Shown piece by piece: positions 6,851 through 62,811 of a stretch of DNA of 64,000 bases. The stretch is taken from contig JBAYTR010000015.1 in the NCBI GenBank assembly GCA_041675505.1, forward strand, positions 4,972 to 68,971, read 5' to 3'. Under the pieces are notes generated by a model. It was given only the letters and a program-made list of their open reading frames with translations, searched no databases and was not told where the DNA came from. Position numbers and translations under genes: made by a program. This DNA comes from Bacteroidia bacterium (lineage in GTDB: Bacteria > Bacteroidota > Bacteroidia > UKL13-3). How positions within the stretch are numbered: position 1 is the first letter of the stretch; every line of letters begins with the position of its first letter.

Positions 6851-6913
6851 GTCTGACGCGTAATGCGTCTGACCGCACCGCATCAATTTGGTCAGACGCA
6901 TTACGCGTCAGAC
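6851..6913. repeat. Perfect 24-bp inverted repeat, GTCTGACGCGTAATGCGTCTGACC with a 15-nt spacer. Each arm contains an inner GACGC-N5-GCGTC palindrome.
   Basis: Read directly from the sequence: arm 1 is 6851..6874 and arm 2 is 6890..6913, which is the exact reverse complement. Confidence 0.9.
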
Positions 6914-6940
6914 CAATTGCAAACCATCTATACCTGGTGC

Positions 6941-6961
6941 TGTCAGTTGCTACAACTGACA
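6941..6961. repeat. Second hairpin, with a 9-bp stem TGTCAGTTG / CAACTGACA and a 3-nt loop.
   Basis: Read directly from the sequence. It lies 27 nt after the first palindrome, in the rodA 3' intergenic region. Confidence 0.8.
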
Positions 6962-54673: not shown

Positions 54674-56197
54674 ATGAGCGAGACTAAAAAAATTACCAAC
54701 GCCTTAATTTCAGTTTTCTATAAAGATGGTTTAGAGCCTGTTGTGAAAGAGTTGCACCGTTTGGGTGTTACAATTTATTCTACCGGAGGAACACAGGAGT
54801 TTATAGAGAAGTTGGGTATTCCGGTAATTGCCGTAGAGTCTCTTACAGGATATCCTTCTATTTTGGGCGGAAGAGTAAAAACATTGCACCCTAAAGTTTT
54901 TGGTGGTATTCTGGCCCGAAGAGAAAATGCTTCTGATATTTCAGAGGCTGCTCAGTTTGAAATTCCAATGCTTGATTTGGTGATTGTTGATTTATATCCG
55001 TTTGAGGAGACAGTAAAGTCAACCACAGATGAAAGCGCTATCATTGAGAAAATTGACATTGGCGGAGTATCACTCATTCGTGCCACTGCAAAAAATCACC
55101 GCGACACCATTATTGTTGCGCACAAAAATGACTACGCATTTTTGCTCAACCTGCTGCAAACTAAAAACGGCAGTAGCATGGATGACAGGAGAGAATTGGC
55201 CCGCAGAGCATTTAACGTTACGTCACACTACGATACACATATTTTCAACTACTTTAACGGAAACCGCACCGACAGTTTTAAAGAAAGCATACTCACGGGT
55301 ACTACTTTGCGGTACGGTGAAAACCCGCACCAGAAAGGAGTTTTTTACGGAGATTTAAGTGAAGTGTTTGACCAGCTGCACGGCAAAGAGTTGTCGTACA
55401 ACAACCTGGTTGATGCGGAAGCGGCACTACAGCTTTCGGCTGAATTCACCCAACCCGCCTTTGCCATTATCAAACATACCAACCCCTGTGGTGTAGCAGA
55501 GCGCGATACCTTGTTGCAAGCCTGGAATGATGCATTAGCCGGTGATCCGGTTTCAGCATTTGGCGGTGTGATTGCCTCTAATCGGGTTATTGATGAGGCC
55601 ACCGCAAAGGCAATGGACAGCCTATTTTTTGAACTACTCATTGCCCCGGGTTATGATGCCGCAGCTTTAGAAATACTGAAATCAAAAAAGAACCGCGTTT
55701 TGCTGGTACAGAAAAAAACTGATTTTGGTAAGATGCAGTTTAAATCCTTGCTTAACGGTGTGCTGGCACAGGACAAAGACAGCATGCAGGAAAAAGCAGG
55801 TGATTTAGTTTGTAAGACCCAAACACAACCTACCTCATCAGCACAGGTTGACGATTTGCTCTTTGCCGCTAAGCTGGTGAAGAATGCAAAATCCAACACC
55901 ATTGTACTGGCCAAAAACAATCAGTTAATCGGCATAGGTTGCGGACATACTTCCCGAATTGACGCATTACACCATGCTATAAAAAAAGCGGCTGAATTCG
56001 GGTTTGATTTGAACGGTGCTGTAATGGCTTCGGATGCGTTTTTCCCTTTCCCTGATTGTGTGGAAGTAGCGCATAAGGCAGGGATTAAAGCAGTGATTCA
56101 ACCCGGTGGTTCTATCAAAGATCAGTTGAGTATTGATTACTGCAATGCACACGGTTTAGCTATGGTATTCACCGGCATTCGTCATTTCAAACACTAA
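54674..56197 (+). CDS. purH: Bifunctional AICAR transformylase / IMP cyclohydrolase.
   Basis: N-terminal MGS-like domain (ALISVFYKDG..) and a C-terminal AICARFT domain. Full-length PurH similarity. Confidence 0.9.
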   Translation: MSETKKITNALISVFYKDGLEPVVKELHRLGVTIYSTGGTQEFIEKLGIPVIAVESLTGYPSILGGRVKTLHPKVFGGILARRENASDISEAAQFEIPMLDLVIVDLYPFEETVKSTTDESAIIEKIDIGGVSLIRATAKNHRDTIIVAHKNDYAFLLNLLQTKNGSSMDDRRELARRAFNVTSHYDTHIFNYFNGNRTDSFKESILTGTTLRYGENPHQKGVFYGDLSEVFDQLHGKELSYNNLVDAEAALQLSAEFTQPAFAIIKHTNPCGVAERDTLLQAWNDALAGDPVSAFGGVIASNRVIDEATAKAMDSLFFELLIAPGYDAAALEILKSKKNRVLLVQKKTDFGKMQFKSLLNGVLAQDKDSMQEKAGDLVCKTQTQPTSSAQVDDLLFAAKLVKNAKSNTIVLAKNNQLIGIGCGHTSRIDALHHAIKKAAEFGFDLNGAVMASDAFFPFPDCVEVAHKAGIKAVIQPGGSIKDQLSIDYCNAHGLAMVFTGIRHFKH

Positions 56198-56204
56198 TTC
56201 ATAG

Positions 56205-56498
56205 TTAAGAATTATCTGTATTCAGATAACTTTTTAGTGCTTTCACATAGTTCTCAAAAGCAGTTATGCCTTTGGGTGTTATTTTACATGTAGTAAGCGG
56301 ATACTTCCCTTTAAATCCTTTTGTTACTTCAATGTAGCCGGCCTGTTGCAGTTTTTCAATCTGCACACTCAGGTTGCCTGCTGTGGCCGCAGTTTTTTCT
56401 TTAAGGTAGCCAAACTCAGCCTCTTTAACAGCAATGAGTAGTGATACAATGGCCAGCCTGAGTTGCGAGTGAAGAAGCGGATCGAGGTCTTTAAACAT
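56205..56498 (-). CDS. Winged-helix transcriptional regulator (97 aa).
   Basis: Small basic protein with a helix-turn-helix core (..TAATAGNLSVQIEKLQQAGYIEV..). It has an 8-bp overlap with the upstream membrane-protein gene. Confidence 0.55.
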   Translation of the reverse strand: MFKDLDPLLHSQLRLAIVSLLIAVKEAEFGYLKEKTAATAGNLSVQIEKLQQAGYIEVTKGFKGKYPLTTCKITPKGITAFENYVKALKSYLNTDNS

Positions 56499-57120
56499 GC
56501 TTGGCTAGTCTGTTATTTAATAAATGGCCGGGAATAATGAAGCCTCCCATAACCCCGATGGCAATGAGTAACAGATGTACTTCTGTACCCCTTCCCAATG
56601 CCTGTGCTATAAACGACTCTGGTAATTGTTTGGCTATTTCGGGATAGATAAAACCAATCAGCGCACAAGTCCAGTTGAGTATTCCACCCCATTTCAAGGG
56701 CTTGAATTTTAATAACCCGCCAGATACAAATAACCAAATCGCATACACCACCATAATGGTGGGATAGAAAGCTTTCCATTGCGCTCCTACAGGCATTGCA
56801 AAACAGATTACAAACATGGAAATACTGAATGCTTTTATCACCTCGTTCATGCTTTCTGATACATACGTTTTTACCTCTACTTCTTTTTTCTTTTCACGCA
56901 TGCCGTATATCATGGTTACTATACCGCCCAATGGCATCAGTATCATCCAGGGTAATCCGTGTATTTCAAATGTTGTAAAACCAATGATATATAAATCGGC
57001 AAGCGCAGCAATAAATACCAACCAGCCCCAGAAATAATAATAAAAACCGTTGTCTCTTATTTCTTCTTTTGTTTTGCTGATCATTTCTTCAATCAGCAGG
57101 ATAGCGTCTTTTTCATTCAT
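56491..57120 (-). CDS. Hypothetical polytopic membrane protein.
   Basis: Five to six hydrophobic helices. Co-transcribed with the small wHTH regulator. Confidence 0.5.
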   Translation of the reverse strand: MNEKDAILLIEEMISKTKEEIRDNGFYYYFWGWLVFIAALADLYIIGFTTFEIHGLPWMILMPLGGIVTMIYGMREKKKEVEVKTYVSESMNEVIKAFSISMFVICFAMPVGAQWKAFYPTIMVVYAIWLFVSGGLLKFKPLKWGGILNWTCALIGFIYPEIAKQLPESFIAQALGRGTEVHLLLIAIGVMGGFIIPGHLLNNRLAKHV

Positions 57121-57173
57121 AACATTAAAAGTTTTGCAACGGATTTTGCTTTAGACAAAATCCGTTGCAGGTT

Positions 57174-58088
57174 TTATTTCTTAATTACAATTCTGTGTTT
57201 TGTGGTACTTTTATCTGCATGGTGAAGCACTACAATATACACACCTTCTTTTAATCCTTCACAGTCAACATTTATTTCTGATGTTTCTGCTTTTACACTT
57301 TTCACTACTTCTGCCTTCACATTGTATAGCTCTATCAGGTCCACCGTTTTTTCAGCATAAATGTTAAAACTTTCTTTTGCAGGGTTAGGGTAGATCTTAA
57401 TTAGTTGTGCTGCATTTATGTGTTTTACTGAGGTGTGTTGGTAACTGAAGCTGATGTCGTCCAGGTATAGTTTACTTCCTACTACGGGGTCAAAACCGTT
57501 TATGCTGGAGGAGAATAATACAGCTAAAGAATCAGGAGTGTAATTGCTGCGGTAGTTAATAGTTACTTCTGCCTGCACATATTGACTGATGGTTTGATGG
57601 TTTTCCCAGTCAGCATAGCCTACAGTATCTCTTTGTAAAGTTGTAGTGTTCCATCGGGTCAGGAGTAAGGTCATGGCGTTTGTGTCTCCGGTCATGGGGT
57701 TGGCTTTGAAGAAAAATTTCAACGACACCGGCCGCGAACTGAACGGGATAAGGTTACGCTCCATTACTGGTTCCCATTGTTCAGTCAGAATAAGGTTGGT
57801 GGTCAATAAACCGGGAGTGTTGGACATGGTACCCGATTTGGTTTCGAGCAATACTGCTGATGTGCCGCTGTGAGCATCTCCAGTTTTAAGTGTGGTTTGC
57901 GGGTAACTGACCAGTGACAGTATGTTCAGCGAGAACCAACCCTGCGGCTCCTGGAAGGTGATGCCGTTACTTGTTTTCTGTAGCCAGTTTTCCAGTCCAC
58001 CATTGATGGGTTGTTCCTGCGCTTGTGCACCCAGCCACAACCCGGTTGTGACCATTAGTGCGAATAATTTTGTACGTTTATTAGACAT
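57174..58088 (-). CDS. Secreted hypothetical protein with a T9SS C-terminal sorting domain.
   Basis: Signal peptide (..GAQAQ). The C-terminus (..KIYPNPAKESFNIY...GVYIVVL..) matches the type A T9SS CTD. Confidence 0.7.
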   Translation of the reverse strand: MSNKRTKLFALMVTTGLWLGAQAQEQPINGGLENWLQKTSNGITFQEPQGWFSLNILSLVSYPQTTLKTGDAHSGTSAVLLETKSGTMSNTPGLLTTNLILTEQWEPVMERNLIPFSSRPVSLKFFFKANPMTGDTNAMTLLLTRWNTTTLQRDTVGYADWENHQTISQYVQAEVTINYRSNYTPDSLAVLFSSSINGFDPVVGSKLYLDDISFSYQHTSVKHINAAQLIKIYPNPAKESFNIYAEKTVDLIELYNVKAEVVKSVKAETSEINVDCEGLKEGVYIVVLHHADKSTTKHRIVIKK

Positions 58089-58231
58089 GGATTTGAAACA
58101 TTTGATTTGCGATACAAATGTAAAGTAGTTTATATTATAAACTGAAATTTATTTTCAAAGTTTAGTATTAAAGTACTGAAAATAAGTCTGATAAATGGTA
58201 ATTATATACTTGACAGACCCATAATTGAGGG

Positions 58232-58771
58232 TCAGAACTTTACACCGTAAGCGGCAAGTTCTCTTCTTATGTCCTTAATTACCCCAAAATACACACCTTG
58301 AATTTTAAGCAGGTCTTTGGGTTTTATGGTTAGCAGGTCGGCAACGGTTTCAAACTTTAGGAACTTCATAACCTTCATGGTGCGTACGGTTATGTCTAAG
58401 TCCTCTAACCGTAGTTTTAAAACAGATTGTAGGTGTTCAGATGGTTCAGGCTTTTTGTGGAGTTTAGCAAGTTGCTGGGTTAGGTTATAGTTTACCTCTT
58501 TAAGTGTTTCATAGTGTTTATATTTCTCAAAGAAGTACTCTATTGAGGATATTATGTGCATTAAAGAGGTCTTGTATATCTGTTCTACGCGCTGTGTCGT
58601 TATTCCTATGTCTTTCGCTACTGCATCGTATGTATGTCTGAATAATAGTATCCGTTTTAAAACTTCACCGTTACGCTCGTCAATATTGAACAGGTTCAAA
58701 CGCTCATCAAGAGTAATGAGGTTCATTAAAAGGACTTGGTCAGACTTATGTAGGAATTTCAGGTCAGTCAC
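58232..58771 (-). CDS. Transposon cargo: putative transcription factor with a sigma-70 region-4-like HTH and an RNA polymerase alpha-subunit CTD-like domain. The annotated start codon is GTG.
   Basis: Residues ~35-75 (EVLKRILLFRHTYDAVAKDIGITTQRVEQIYKTSLMHI) match the sigma-70 r4 / LuxR-type HTH. Residues ~115-179 (LRLEDLDITVRTMKVMKFLKFETVADLLTIKPKDLLKIQGVYFGVIKDIRRELAAYGV) match the RpoA alpha-CTD helix-hairpin-helix pattern. Confidence 0.55.
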   Translation of the reverse strand: MTDLKFLHKSDQVLLMNLITLDERLNLFNIDERNGEVLKRILLFRHTYDAVAKDIGITTQRVEQIYKTSLMHIISSIEYFFEKYKHYETLKEVNYNLTQQLAKLHKKPEPSEHLQSVLKLRLEDLDITVRTMKVMKFLKFETVADLLTIKPKDLLKIQGVYFGVIKDIRRELAAYGVKF

Positions 58772-58772
58772 A

Positions 58773-58910
58773 TTAGTGCTTTTTTAGTGGCATGGGTTTA
58801 ACCCTTACAATGCGTTGTATTACCTCTCCAAAGCTGGGTTTTTGCTCTTGCTCTGTATCGGGTTTCTTTTTTTCGCCTGACTTGGGTTTTGGAACTATTT
58901 TTTTTGACAT
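58773..58910 (-). CDS. Possible 45-aa Lys-rich micro-protein (MSKKIVPKPKSGEKKKPDTEQEQKPSFGEVIQRIVRVKPMPLKKH) immediately upstream of the HTH cargo gene.
   Basis: An ATG-initiated ORF ends 1 nt before the GTG start of the next gene. It is below the ORF-track length cutoff and rests on a manual translation only. Confidence 0.25.
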   Translation of the reverse strand: MSKKIVPKPKSGEKKKPDTEQEQKPSFGEVIQRIVRVKPMPLKKH

Positions 58911-58960
58911 AATACAAAGTTACCGAAAGTTTATATATTGCCGTTCTAAATTATATCCCA

Positions 58961-59473
58961 GTGAAAACATTCTGCATAAATTCATCTATTGAAATAGAGG
59001 TAAGTTATAATACTAAATCCAAAACAAGAGCAAGATTATATGAACACATTACAGAGTATCTAAAAGATGTTAGCCGTTACCTACATGGTAGGCCAGAGTC
59101 TTCTTCGGTGTCAACAGACACTGTTTTACATTTTGTTAAAAGTCAAATATCAAACCTCAATTCGCAAATACAGGAATTTGATGGTATTGAAAATATTGCA
59201 CAAGCAGACCTAAACAGAAAGGTCAAAAACTGTAAGATAAATAAAGACTCTTTAAGTATAGAATCAAACCTGATTGATATATTTGACTTCAGGCTTAATC
59301 ACCAAACTAATATAATAATAAACTACGAATCCGTTGTTTACGCAGTAGAGTCAGAAGACGTTGATAAAAGCGGAAATACATTATTAGTTTGTTATCAGAA
59401 AAAAGAGCCATTTGAAAGTAGAATACAAATACCTAAAAACTCGAACGTCCCCTATCATTTGCGTTCAATGTAG
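58961..59473 (+). CDS. Transposon cargo: hypothetical protein (170 aa).
   Basis: A long ORF in a 33% GC region, which is unlikely to arise by chance in AT-rich DNA. No motif was recognised. Confidence 0.4.
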   Translation: MKTFCINSSIEIEVSYNTKSKTRARLYEHITEYLKDVSRYLHGRPESSSVSTDTVLHFVKSQISNLNSQIQEFDGIENIAQADLNRKVKNCKINKDSLSIESNLIDIFDFRLNHQTNIIINYESVVYAVESEDVDKSGNTLLVCYQKKEPFESRIQIPKNSNVPYHLRSM

Positions 59474-59753
59474 TGTCGAAATCTCCATTAACTAAACAAC
59501 CTGTAAAGTATTCAATCATTGAGTCAACAATGTATGTGGCGAACTTAACGTCAAACTTCTCCCAATTTACGACAGCATAAGCCAACTCAAAAGGGGGTTG
59601 TTGTTGAAAGTCTATTGAACACGCTTTTAAATTACCCGAATTTTTTAACCTTCGTAAGTAGTCTATTATTATGACAGTCCTTTTTATATTAGACAATTCC
59701 CCATTTGGGGAATAGATTGTATCCAATTCTGATTCTTCTACGGTGGTATTCAT
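59433..59753 (-). CDS. Transposon cargo: hypothetical protein (106 aa).
   Basis: An ORF in AT-rich DNA that overlaps the 58961..59473 ORF by 41 bp on the opposite strand. One of the two may be spurious. Confidence 0.3.
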   Translation of the reverse strand: MNTTVEESELDTIYSPNGELSNIKRTVIIIDYLRRLKNSGNLKACSIDFQQQPPFELAYAVVNWEKFDVKFATYIVDSMIEYFTGCLVNGDFDTTLNANDRGRSSF

Positions 59754-59891
59754 ATTTATACTTATTAATCCAAACTCTTATATATGCAAATATAAACATA
59801 TATTCATATTTATCAAAACAAACAAAACACATTAATTCAATCTTAAAATAAACCTGTATGATGTTCTACTGAGTCAACCCAAAAATAGACT

Positions 59892-60885
59892 TTATTTCCC
59901 TTGCTTTCCTATCAGAGTTATATACTCCAAATTCCCTACATTCGACTGTAACAGGAGTAAATCAAACCTGTCACTTTCACTCATTTTCCTGTTATTGAAC
60001 CTGTAAGCGAACTCCTCCAAATAACGCTGTAAGTGCTTCTTACTTGTGAAGTGATAAATACCCAAAATCCCCCGTTTTAATAGCGACCAAAAGTTTTCAA
60101 TTGTGTTCGTGTATATCCCCGACTACATATTGTTTGGCTGCGTGTTTAATGGTATCGTGCGAAAACCCTGACTTGCCTAAATCTTGATATGCGTACCATT
60201 CATCAGAAACCACCCTTGCAAACTCTTTTACGTTCTGAATGATTATAGGCTGTAATGTGTTCTTTTTGGTGTTATCAACGTGCTTTGCAATAACGTTTCC
60301 TTTGCGCTCAATCATTCCAAAGACCGCTTTAGGCTCTTCACCTACCTTGTTGCTCTTATAGCCCCCTAATCCGTTCTTACCGCCTCTTTTGCTCTTGTGC
60401 TTATTCTTTTCCTTGCCCTGTAAGAATGTTTCATCAACTTCTACAATGTTCTCCAAAGGTTTTTTATAGTCTTCGTTCTCCATGCCGAACCTTAAACGGT
60501 GCAACATGAACCATGCACTTTTTTGAGTAACCTTTATATCTTTTGCCAATTGCATTGAACTTATGCCTTTTGAGTGTGATGTAAACAGGTAGATAGCAGG
60601 AAACCACTTAACCAACGGTATTTTGCTGTCCTGAAATATTGTACCAACCCGAACCGTGAACTTTTTACGGCACGCACCACACTTGTAATAAATACCGTCT
60701 GAGAATGCGTAAACATTATTGTCATTATTGCAATGTGGGCAAACAGGCTTGTCACCCCAACGCTTTGCAGCTATATACCGTGAGCACTTCTCCTCTGTGT
60801 TGAACGTGGTTATTAAGTCAATCAGATTCGTGAACTTTTCTATACTTTCCATGTCTTCCATGTCGTTTGTATTTCTCGGGTACAA
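59892..60885 (-). pseudogene. IS1595-family transposase interrupted by a frameshift near 60100.
   Basis: The N-terminal 262 aa have the IS1595 zinc-ribbon region (CPHCNNDNNVYAFSDGIYYKCGACRKKF..IFQDSKIPLVKWFPAIYL..SKGISSMQLAKDIKVTQKSAWFMLHRLR) and DDE core (..VEVDETFLQGKEKN..) and end at ..VVGDIHEHN*. The conserved C-terminus (YTNTIENFWSLLKRGILGIYHFTSKKHLQRYLEEFAYRFNNRK..) continues downstream in another frame, down to the stop at 59892. Confidence 0.8.
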
Positions 60886-60935
60886 ACTTACAACATTTAT
60901 TTGGGTCTGTCAAGTATATAGTTACCTGATAAATT

Positions 60936-61544
60936 TTATGGAATGAACCGTTCGCTGGTTTTGTGCTTGCCGGTGAGGTCGTGCCCGCTGATGTCGAGGT
61001 ACTCGATATTGGGTACCCAAAAGGAGCCCCCTACAATGTGAACATAAACCCGGTCGAGCTGACTCAACCTCCCGTTGATGTAAGTGTACACATGGTATTT
61101 ATGGTCGTGTTCTGAACGGATAAGGTAAAGATTTTTTTTGCGGTAACTCACAAACGTAAGCAGGTACGATTGTTTTTCGGCATTTACCAGCGTAGCATTT
61201 AAACCGTAAGCATACTTTTTCTGAATGATGGTAAGGTCTTCCTTCTGGTTTTGTTCGGCATAACACTGCCAGTATATTTTCACCGGCATTTGAGGGTTTG
61301 GTTTTCCATCAGGCCGCAGGTTTACTTCGTACATAATGGTATTGGTATTTACACTGCGCTGTATGTAAAACAACTGGTGCTCAAATCGGGGAACAGGAAA
61401 AGAATCAGGAACAGTTTTTACACTTTTTTGTACGGGAGAAACAAGGTGAGTAGCCGGTTCTTTAACCAACCACCACACAGACATTGCAGACATGGTCCCG
61501 ATACTGAAAATAAGTGTACGAAAAAAAATCATGAAAGGCTGCAA
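60936..61544 (-). CDS. Hypothetical protein with an N-terminal TM/signal segment.
   Basis: N-terminal hydrophobic segment (..LIFSIGTMSAMSVWWLV). Its stop codon lies 1 bp from the transposon TSD. Confidence 0.5.
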   Translation of the reverse strand: MQPFMIFFRTLIFSIGTMSAMSVWWLVKEPATHLVSPVQKSVKTVPDSFPVPRFEHQLFYIQRSVNTNTIMYEVNLRPDGKPNPQMPVKIYWQCYAEQNQKEDLTIIQKKYAYGLNATLVNAEKQSYLLTFVSYRKKNLYLIRSEHDHKYHVYTYINGRLSQLDRVYVHIVGGSFWVPNIEYLDISGHDLTGKHKTSERFIP

Positions 61545-61599
61545 ATTTAAGATTATGCTTTTACAAAGTACTCATAAAATTTGCAAGGGCCATAAAGCA

Positions 61600-61628
61600 A
61601 GAAACCCCGCATAAAGCGGGGTTCTTGT
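61600..61628 (-). terminator. Terminator-like hairpin downstream of the acyl-CoA dehydrogenase gene, with stem AACCCCGC / GCGGGGTT.
   Basis: A perfect 8-bp GC-rich stem with a 5-nt loop, followed on the minus strand by a moderately U-rich tract. Confidence 0.5.
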
Positions 61629-61671
61629 GCAAATCAAATGTTCAAATCCTTTTTAGGGGATGTCTTAATTC

Positions 61672-62811
61672 TTACCGGAGTATCTCGCGGGAGATAACTA
61701 TTTTTTGTACTTCAGAAGTACCCTCGTAAATCTGGGTGATTTTGGCATCACGCATCAAACGCTCCACGTGGTACTCTTTAACGTAACCGTAACCACCGTG
61801 AACTTGCACGGCTTCTGTAGTTACGTTCATAGCAGTGGTAGAGGCAAACAACTTAGCCATAGAACTGGCCAGGGCATATTCTTTATGTTCGTCTTTTAAC
61901 CAGGCCGCTTTTAAGCACAACAAACGAGCTGCTTCAATCTCGGTAGCCATATCAGCTAATTTGAATTGAATTGCCTGGTGGTTTTTGATTTCAGTACCAA
62001 AAGCTTTACGCTCTTTAGAATATTTTACGGCCAGTTCATAAGCACCGCTGGCTATACCTAAAGCCTGAGAGGCAATGCCTATTCGGCCACCTGCCAGTGT
62101 TTTCATGGCAAAAGTGAATCCGAATCCGTCTTCACCAATGCGGTTTTCTTTAGGCACCTTCACATCCTGAAACATGATGGAGTGTGTATCGCTGGCGCGA
62201 ATACCCATTTTTTGTTCTTTTTTACCAACGGTAACACCGGGCCAGTTTTTCTCTACAATAAAGGCGTTAATACCTTTGTGTTTTTTATCGGGATGCGTTT
62301 GTGCAATTACCAGATACGTATCGGCAGTATTGCCACAGGTAATCCAATTTTTGGTTCCGTTGAGCAGGTAGTAATCACCCTTGTCTTCAGCAGTGGTGCG
62401 TTGTGAGGTTGCATCAGAACCGGCTTCGGGTTCTGAAAGCAAGAATGCTCCGTGAACCTTTCCGCTGGCCAATGGCACTAAATATTTCATCTTTTGCTCT
62501 TCATTGGCAAAGGTTTCTAAGCCCCAGCATACTAAAGAGTTGTTAACGGATATAACTACTGAAGTGGATGCATCCACTTTTGAAATTTCTTCCATCACCA
62601 ATACATACGATACCGTGTCCATGCCTGCACCGCCATACTTCGGATCAACCATCATTCCCATAAAGCCCATTTCGCCCAGTTTGCGAATTTGTTCCATTGG
62701 GAAAATCTGCTCCTCATCGCGCTCAATCACACCCGGCAGTAACTCAGTTTGTGCAAAGTCTCTGGCGGCTTGTTGAACCATTAATTGTTCTTCGGTTAGT
62801 TCTATGTTCAT
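61672..62811 (-). CDS. Acyl-CoA dehydrogenase (short/medium-chain type).
   Basis: Full-length ACAD pattern, including the ..YLLNGTKNWITC.. FAD/substrate region and a C-terminal ..VQVHGGYGYVKEY..ERLMRDAKITQIYEGTS catalytic Glu region. Confidence 0.9.
   Translation of the reverse strand: MNIELTEEQLMVQQAARDFAQTELLPGVIERDEEQIFPMEQIRKLGEMGFMGMMVDPKYGGAGMDTVSYVLVMEEISKVDASTSVVISVNNSLVCWGLETFANEEQKMKYLVPLASGKVHGAFLLSEPEAGSDATSQRTTAEDKGDYYLLNGTKNWITCGNTADTYLVIAQTHPDKKHKGINAFIVEKNWPGVTVGKKEQKMGIRASDTHSIMFQDVKVPKENRIGEDGFGFTFAMKTLAGGRIGIASQALGIASGAYELAVKYSKERKAFGTEIKNHQAIQFKLADMATEIEAARLLCLKAAWLKDEHKEYALASSMAKLFASTTAMNVTTEAVQVHGGYGYVKEYHVERLMRDAKITQIYEGTSEVQKIVISREILR

Follow-up and report, generated by a model that had tools for sequence, protein, structure and literature searches.

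The locus considered here raises the question of what kind of unit occupies the spacer between the gene of a DUF4833 protein and the gene of a protein sorted by the type IX secretion system (T9SS) in an uncultured Bacteroidia bacterium, and how the small genes inside this unit came to lie beside its transposase. The stretch of DNA analysed, hereafter the window, covers 64,000 nucleotides (nt) of contig JBAYTR010000015.1 (assembly GCA_041675505.1, positions 4,972 to 68,971), and all coordinates are those of the window unless a locus is named. With high confidence, the unit belongs to the transporter insertion sequences (tIS) of the IS1595 family, i.e., copies of an insertion sequence (IS) with passenger genes; it measures 2730 bp and was inserted as one piece. 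The first-pass annotation of the window had already described an IS1595-family element with passengers inside one pair of inverted repeats and an 8-bp duplication, and the repeats, the duplicated sequence TGATAAAT and the family profiles agree with that description.

The two copies of the target-site duplication TGATAAAT are identical (58189-58196 on the left, 60927-60934 on the right), and the 2730 bp between them are enclosed by two 25-nt terminal inverted repeats with one mismatch between them: the repeat far from the transposase, IRR (58197-58221, plus strand, GGTAATTATATACTTGACAGACCCA), is complementary at 24 of 25 positions to the one adjoining the transposase, IRL (60902-60926, minus strand), which contains TTGACA. 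The end of the element reads GGTAATTAT. The 19-nt core of the repeat was met at two places only in the 64-kb window with up to 3 mismatches allowed, while 0.03 matches were expected in the shuffled window and two matches occurred in none of 100 shuffles. The G+C content of the element is 36.4% (34.3% in the passenger part, 40.0% in the transposase part), compared with 41-44% in the flanks and 42.2% in the window; the drop previously put at 33% versus 45% is therefore real in direction and smaller in size (34-36% versus 41-44%). By coordinates, the element stands relative to both neighbouring genes as had been claimed, with the target duplication 1 nt past the stop codon of the DUF4833 gene (60936-61544, minus strand) and the element edge 108 nt from the ATG of the T9SS-sorted protein gene at 58088. 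An Rfam scan of 57000-62000 gave no match at E<=1, and no tRNA was found in a search of 56000-62000.

The assignment to the family is carried by the transposase, which is encoded on the minus strand in two open reading frames (ORFs) lying in different frames. The first ORF (60097-60885) gives 262 amino acids (aa) from TTG or, from the likely ATG at 60861 to a premature stop at 60097-60099, the N-terminal 254 aa of the transposase (60097-60861) with a zinc ribbon, a helix-turn-helix (HTH) and the DDE domain except for its last third; the zinc ribbon (residues 30-74, CPHC...CGAC) is recognised by PF12760 (Zn_ribbon_IS1595, E=1.8e-12), and matches to the IS1595/ISXO2-like DDE domain by PF12762 (DDE_Tnp_IS1595, E=2.4e-22) and NF033547 (E=4e-42) are above the curated cut-offs. 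The second ORF (59892-60065, 57 aa) matches positions 131-153 of PF12762 (E=1.1e-6) and positions 191-215 of NF033547, and these C-terminal matches, together with the frame analysis, place the out-of-frame C-terminal part of the protein (...TNTIENFWSLLKR...), which holds the presumed catalytic E...K, at 59892-60110 on the minus strand. The motifs VEVDET, VSDEWYAY and NTIENFWSLLKR are visible on direct reading and kept in relatives, the E...K of the window lying downstream of the frameshift. The single uninterrupted reading frame of the IS1595 relatives is lacking in the window copy, and this broken frame marks a defective copy and is no reason for exclusion from the IS1595 family. Four ORFs occupy the part of the element from the far repeat (58221) to the transposase stop (59892), and there is one transposase, which is the composition of a tIS.

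The history of the insertion can be followed from the empty sites, which were searched for in public assemblies matched exactly to the 198-aa DUF4833 protein and to a 97-aa HTH_34 protein. In at least 11 related contigs (L124 and L129-L138), the DUF4833 gene and the T9SS-substrate gene that follows it are separated by 109 nt, and the element is absent. At the empty site, L124 reads ...CCATAAA ATTTATCA GACTTATT... or, in a longer form of the junction, ...TTCCATAAA ATTTATCA GACTTATTTTCAG..., with the 8-mer present once and the flanks 97-98% identical to those of the window; it carries the exact reverse complement of the empty site AATAAGTCTGATAAATTTTATGG that had been predicted. The blastn segments of the window against L124 end at 60926 and 58196; their 9-nt overlap in L124 corresponds to the 8-bp duplicated target plus one base matching the junction by chance. 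In more distant strains (89-96% identity), AATTATCG is found at the target position. Since the empty site of L124 lacks exactly 2730 bp and one target copy, the whole of the element arrived in one recent event and in one lineage, and the earlier proposal of a recent, strain-specific acquisition is upheld by the empty sites, one of them exactly as predicted.

The way in which the element would have moved can be described from family knowledge. The DDE transposase with its N-terminal zinc ribbon would recognise both 25-bp terminal repeats and join them to AT-rich target DNA whose strands are cut 8 bp apart, so that everything between the repeats would travel, in this case into the 109-nt spacer between the DUF4833 gene and the T9SS-substrate gene of the Bacteroidia host. 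A later 2-nt deletion has destroyed the transposase, leaving the copy fixed unless a related transposase acts in trans. It weighs against this scheme that its transposition chemistry is taken over from membership of the family.

The exact 25-mer end was found in seven representative genomes, at the ends of elements; they are labelled Hyphomicrobiales, Pyrinomonadaceae (two), cyanobacterium, Chloroflexota, Margulisiibacteriota and Dehalococcoidales, and, being metagenome-assembled genomes, bear labels that depend on binning. The exact 20-nt end core is present in 102 metagenome contigs, and no copy of the end was found in the viral contigs searched. The transposases of the elements sharing this end are only 38-51% identical to that of the window, and, with the 20-mer exact at such divergence, the end sequence is much more constrained than the gene. 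In the window (60883-60926), TTGACA lies in the end and TAAGTT(TG) 17 nt further inward, before the transposase ATG, and a promoter embedded in the end may be one plausible cause of the constraint, as far as these motifs suggest. Element G+C varies from 27% to 58% across the end-sharing loci, roughly following the flanks.

Elements with both ends on one contig measure 2368-5640 bp, and perfect 8-bp AT-rich duplications flank 12 complete siblings, L091 matching at 7 of 8 positions. Siblings with the same ends and their own 8-bp duplications (2.4-5.6 kb) are L002, L005, L009, L014, L026, L030, L035, L053, L066, L071, L101, L109 and L110; in L003 the two flanks mismatch, and in L004 the far end was not found. 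An end-like sequence at a distance of 0.9-1.4 kb was seen in at most 2 of the 62 loci with at least 1.4 kb of sequence beyond the end, so that the comparison with a typical IS of about 1 kb does not hold for this lineage: passenger-free copies appear, from these loci, to be rare or absent, and the passenger slot is to be regarded as the ancestral state and not as a recent accident. The passengers of the siblings were identified by Pfam. The pairs of a methylase and a nuclease include an N6_N4 methylase with an MvaI/BcnI nuclease in L002 (and in L004, assigned by close resemblance and not by a scan) and a D12-class methylase with a PD-(D/E)XK nuclease in L026, L030 and L071, while a Dam-like methylase (DPPY motif) with a 159-aa ORF was read by eye, and not scanned, in L003. 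In addition, PIN_10/DUF5615 with DUF433 was found in L005, the SocA/Panacea antitoxin with an unknown partner in L053 and L091, GmrSD_N with HEPN in L009, Replic_Relax with a 1029-aa class I aminoacyl-tRNA synthetase in L035, and a weak PIN in L110. About half of the sibling passengers are without assignment, and PADLOC returned nothing for those unassigned. In the plasmid collections, the best transposase relatives are at most 45% identical, and of the two best examined, L139 has no matching end and L140 only a candidate with 8 mismatches.

Several of these loci deserve a separate mention. L073, a derivative of 780 bp that has no transposase, bears the same terminal repeats and is flanked by a perfect duplication of 8 bp, CAACCATA; it resembles a non-autonomous miniature inverted-repeat transposable element (MITE) or mobile insertion cassette (MIC). 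The synthetase of the 5.6-kb element at L035:4129-9768 could be an extra, possibly inhibitor-resistant, copy moved by the IS. At L011:3859-3916, an IRR-like end is followed by the 8 bp CTATATAT and then by an abutting IRL-like end, which could be a tandem insertion of two elements or a junction of the kind known from IS dimers or circles. A local pile-up of related elements is seen at L120:1-9766, where 8 kb contain three transposase genes of the IS1595 family, for proteins of 309, 312 and 339 aa.

The passenger part of the window element had been described as three or four cargo genes; four ORFs are indeed present, and they are not equivalent. Two of them, next to the far repeat, form a conserved module. 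Its first gene (58773-58910, minus strand) encodes a 45-aa lysine-rich peptide with the motif SFGEhhxRIVRVKP, conserved in 7 elements, and its second gene (58232-58771, minus strand) a 179-aa protein in which a sigma-70 region-4-like HTH is joined by a linker to a domain resembling the C-terminal domain of the RNA polymerase alpha subunit (alpha-CTD). The C-terminal half of the protein matches PF03118 (E=1.3e-7) and, in the PDB, C-terminal domains of RpoA only, and the N-terminal half matches Sigma70_r4 (E=0.004). According to alignment A1, the true start of this gene is the GTG at 58771, 1 nt past the stop codon of the peptide. In the corresponding segment (58726-58910), the public protein P0001 begins at a later ATG (164 aa), and the 45-aa gene is left uncalled by gene callers.

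The module was recognised in the loci of the closest transposase relatives, followed by an all-against-all comparison. A small ORF paired with a protein ending in alpha-CTD is present in six of the eight closest distinct elements; of the other two, L121 has the small-ORF homologue only and L119 is interrupted by the contig end. The peptide is conserved in 7 elements, directly upstream of the alpha-CTD gene in six of them, and the peptides share SFGEhhxRIVRVKP (alignment A2), the proteins their C-terminal 60 residues (alignment A1). The two products have 45 and 179 aa in the window; 51 and 183 aa in L014, where the larger is 37% identical to its counterpart in the window over the full length and the pair has the same order and strand as in the window and adjoins the far repeat; 52 and 174 aa in L120; 41 and 138 aa in L122, directly after the transposase; 44 and 179 aa in L009, inverted; and 48 and 109 aa in L011, inverted as well. 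The genes that separate transposase and module are not the same in any two of the elements. The peptide and alpha-CTD module thus recurs in the closest relatives, and the two remaining genes, of 106 and 170 aa, are specific to the element.

As to function, the module would most likely be an element-encoded regulator of transcription or transposition. A more far-reaching proposal is put forward only tentatively and is rather doubtful, namely, that a Bacteroidota subclade of the IS1595 tIS has a three-gene backbone, in which the accessory peptide (41-52 aa) and the alpha-CTD protein would regulate transposition, target choice or passenger expression, and a fast-exchanging slot would lie between the backbone genes. 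As regards target choice, alpha-CTD domains bind AT-rich UP-like DNA, and the elements insert into AT-rich spacers beside promoters. The competing explanation, to which a little less than an even chance is given, is that the module is passenger DNA of an ordinary kind, frequent in Bacteroidota mobile elements and foreign to the biology of the element itself, and that all four small genes are simply cargo. It is favoured by the absence of the module from the more than 100 loci of the broader clade and from L121, by its occurrence in either orientation, by the wide distribution of proteins combining sigma-70 region 4 (sigma-r4) and alpha-CTD, and by the readable, though short and little informative, contig (999 bp) of a distant relative, P0124, in which neither an IS end nor the peptide was found. 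The width of this distribution follows from 103 relatives of the 179-aa protein in a full HMMER scan of 1.84 billion representatives and from the domains of the 58 relatives that were aligned (RNA_pol_A_CTD in 58 of 58 and Sigma70_r4 in 47 of 58); a word-index search of 5.8 billion proteins returned only the 179-aa protein itself, and the phage and plasmid collections gave no match to it. On the other hand, six elements with transposases of only 55-73% identity, and with intervening genes that all differ, have kept the module, and in L122 it lies directly 3' of the transposase, which argues against mere cargo. The inversion of the module in L009 and L011 and its lack in L121 and in all loci of the broader clade count against an element-encoded regulator, and the latter absences mean that the module is unnecessary for transposition of the family. 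No description of a peptide plus sigma-r4/alpha-CTD module was met in the literature searched.

The other two passengers occupy the variable slot and are convergent with a 41-nt overlap: the 170-aa orphan gene (58961-59473, plus strand) lies in a stop-free run of 186 codons and the 106-aa orphan gene (59433-59753, minus strand) in one of 114 codons. Among 2000 shuffles of this stretch (31% G+C), the longest ORF had a mean of 68 codons and a maximum of 154, and a second ORF of at least 106 codons was seen in none; since their stop-free lengths were never reached, both ORFs are very probably genes. The 170-aa protein matched only itself among 5.8 billion proteins in the word-index search, and neither protein gave anything below E=0.01 in Pfam, NCBIfam, PADLOC and PHROGs, with no match of the pair to a described anti-phage defence or toxin-antitoxin component in these four collections. 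In tblastn of the four passengers against the fetched loci (672 kb, minus L008, a duplicate of the window), only module homologues were found. The single-sequence AlphaFold2 models reached a predicted local distance difference test (pLDDT) of 41 for the 170-aa and 44 for the 106-aa protein, too poor for a fold search. Because the slot of the siblings holds restriction-modification, toxin-antitoxin or GmrSD plus HEPN genes, the best guess is that the pair would most likely be a small addiction or defence pair. This reading comes by analogy only, and its force is lessened by the fact that about half of the sibling passengers are equally unassigned.

The state of the transposase gene admits a second alternative. 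The earlier report of a frameshift is confirmed by the two ORFs in different frames and by a 2-nt gap compared with five relatives. When the repaired transposase, its two parts joined, was used as a search query, thousands of relatives were returned, of which 120 were listed; the closest of them, among these listed matches, are 69-73% identical, and all bar the window's own truncated 254-aa copy are uninterrupted ORFs of 300-351 aa. In the DNA alignment with the five closest relatives, all uninterrupted, a single 2-nt gap is private to the window copy and falls at GATAT^ACAC (60109-60117, minus strand), where the relatives read GATATTCACAC, with the switch of frame located within ...VVGDIH/TNTIENFWSLLKR.... 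Inactivation of the window transposase by a 2-nt deletion is shown by this alignment, so far as reading frames can tell, and the 254-aa product would be inactive because the break comes directly before the presumed catalytic E-x7-K. The deletion is, however, backed by one sample (ERZ27247358) and one assembly only (L008 and L123 repeat the contig of the window), and, as the element-bearing assemblies all come from this sample and are identical to the window, an assembly error is possible. Nevertheless, it is improbable that the transposase is functional and the frameshift an assembly error or a programmed recoding. The two extra nucleotides stand at exactly the deletion site in the five closest relatives and the listed relatives are single ORFs as described. 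The site itself, GATATACACG, has on direct reading neither a slippery heptamer nor a homopolymer, which speaks against this alternative. The IS1595 family is not known to employ recoding.

As for the origin of the passengers, their capture by one-ended or composite transposition had been proposed, with a degenerate internal copy of the end near 59850 as its trace: a simple IS1595 of about 1 kb, its far end lost or bypassed, would have acquired 1.7 kb of the DNA beside it via a solo or surrogate end. The lower G+C of the passenger part (34%) than of the transposase part (40%) and a weak resemblance to the end sequence at 59866-59886 and 59913-59937 could be taken in its favour. The candidate internal end was rejected, since in local alignment of both ends to 59700-60000 and 59754-59891, 77-92% of shuffles score as high, and the resemblances just named are no better than those in shuffled sequence. 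The best ungapped 25-mer matches to the ends inside the element are at 15 of 25 positions, no internal ends were found in the siblings, and the composite arrangement is contradicted by one transposase gene and by the lack of an extra end in the window within 3 mismatches. The far repeat, in turn, matches the near repeat at 24 of 25 positions, and the layout recurs in the closest relatives, where the alpha-CTD module likewise stands beside the far repeat. With no internal end above chance in the window or the siblings, and with siblings sharing the architecture and the perfect 8-bp duplications round the whole unit, a one-ended or composite capture is unsupported and very unlikely. That two separate events took place, a cargo island being present first and a simple IS inserted beside it, has nothing specific in its favour and is barely conceivable, as such a two-step origin is excluded at this locus by the empty-site alleles, L124 being otherwise collinear at 97-98% without exactly 2730 bp and one 8-bp target copy, and ten further related contigs having the same 109-nt spacer.

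With regard to the neighbouring genes, the 100 nt upstream of the ATG of the T9SS gene are kept. Within them lie a TAnnTTTG motif (58115-58122, minus strand) and the palindrome AGTTTATAATATAAACTA, the latter being conserved in the orthologous L122 spacer as well. No terminator-like hairpin was found between the 179-aa gene and the T9SS gene, and read-through from the element into the latter would therefore be possible. The T9SS-substrate gene with the start of the next gene (56687-58196) is 90% identical to L124, with 19 gaps, and, as both flanks are 97-98% identical, represents a locally hypervariable region of a surface protein. A related element at L122:4865-9258 (transposase 62% identical, duplication TAATAAGT) lies upstream of the orthologous T9SS-substrate gene at a distance of about 105 nt, and the genes downstream show 39-72% protein identity to those of the window; inside this element, 54 nt ahead of the start of its transposase, a tRNA-Ala(tgc) is predicted at 6873-6947. 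An ancient orthologous insertion shared with L122 was considered and rejected: the duplications (ATTTATCA versus TAATAAGT) and the upstream neighbours differ, so that the insertion of L122 into the same spacer was independent. Such repeated insertion may indicate a regional target preference.

Among the known systems, the nearest are the tIS, a term introduced for passenger-carrying IS copies in the IS1595 family (Siguier, Gagnevin & Chandler 2009, Res Microbiol 160:232, as cited in PMC3129680 and 10.1101/2021.05.26.445724). The ISNwi1+ and ISPna2+ groups share with the window element one IS1595-type DDE transposase with a zinc ribbon, one repeat pair, an 8-bp AT-rich duplication and passengers inside, whereas the window copy has a dead transposase and, as passengers, two orphans and the peptide/sigma-r4/alpha-CTD module. 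The units of Furuta, Abe & Kobayashi 2010 (NAR; PMC2853133) carry restriction-modification genes between inverted repeats with 8-bp duplications outside them and are mostly without an intact transposase; the siblings L002, L004, L003, L026, L030 and L071 are like them in having methyltransferase and endonuclease inside the repeats (with perfect 8-bp duplications in L002, L026, L030 and L071) and differ in encoding a transposase, while the window element is without recognisable restriction-modification genes. Tn7-like elements resemble this lineage in a conserved transposition backbone with a variable slot, often filled in the siblings by defence or addiction genes; the window element belongs to another transposase family, has a one-gene machinery, is much smaller and has no dedicated attachment site. 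The likeness to MICs and MITEs lies in the window copy being functionally non-autonomous and in L073 being a transposase-less derivative; the window copy, unlike them, keeps its whole transposase gene, broken only by the 2-nt deletion. As to the group within the family, the element may belong to ISNwi1, as GGTAATTAT and E-x7-K fit the consensus 'ggnnatTAT' and 'DDEK' of that group in the ISfinder table. A systematic link between this exact end and passengers for defence or addiction in different phyla was not found described in the literature searched.

Accordingly, the element is an ordinary, well-delimited and defective addition to the IS1595-family tIS; the module, like the orphan pair, is a lead of moderate interest and not a discovery. 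For the host genome the element has little consequence, being one dead, strain-specific intergenic IS that has left the promoter region downstream intact. At the level of the family, it belongs to a widespread IS1595 lineage with the end 20-mer exact across several phyla, in which passengers are present almost always and are frequently restriction-modification or toxin-antitoxin genes; owing to this near constancy of the passengers and to their frequent kind, the lineage may be used as a 'bait' for small defence and addiction genes. The Bacteroidota branch of the lineage keeps an uncharacterised module of a peptide and a sigma-r4/alpha-CTD protein, and, if the three-gene backbone is true, the unassigned genes of the slot (the 106/170-aa pair, three in L014 and two in L120) would be candidates for new defence or addiction genes. 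The lineage also offers a simple system for how a one-gene transposon gains and exchanges its cargo.

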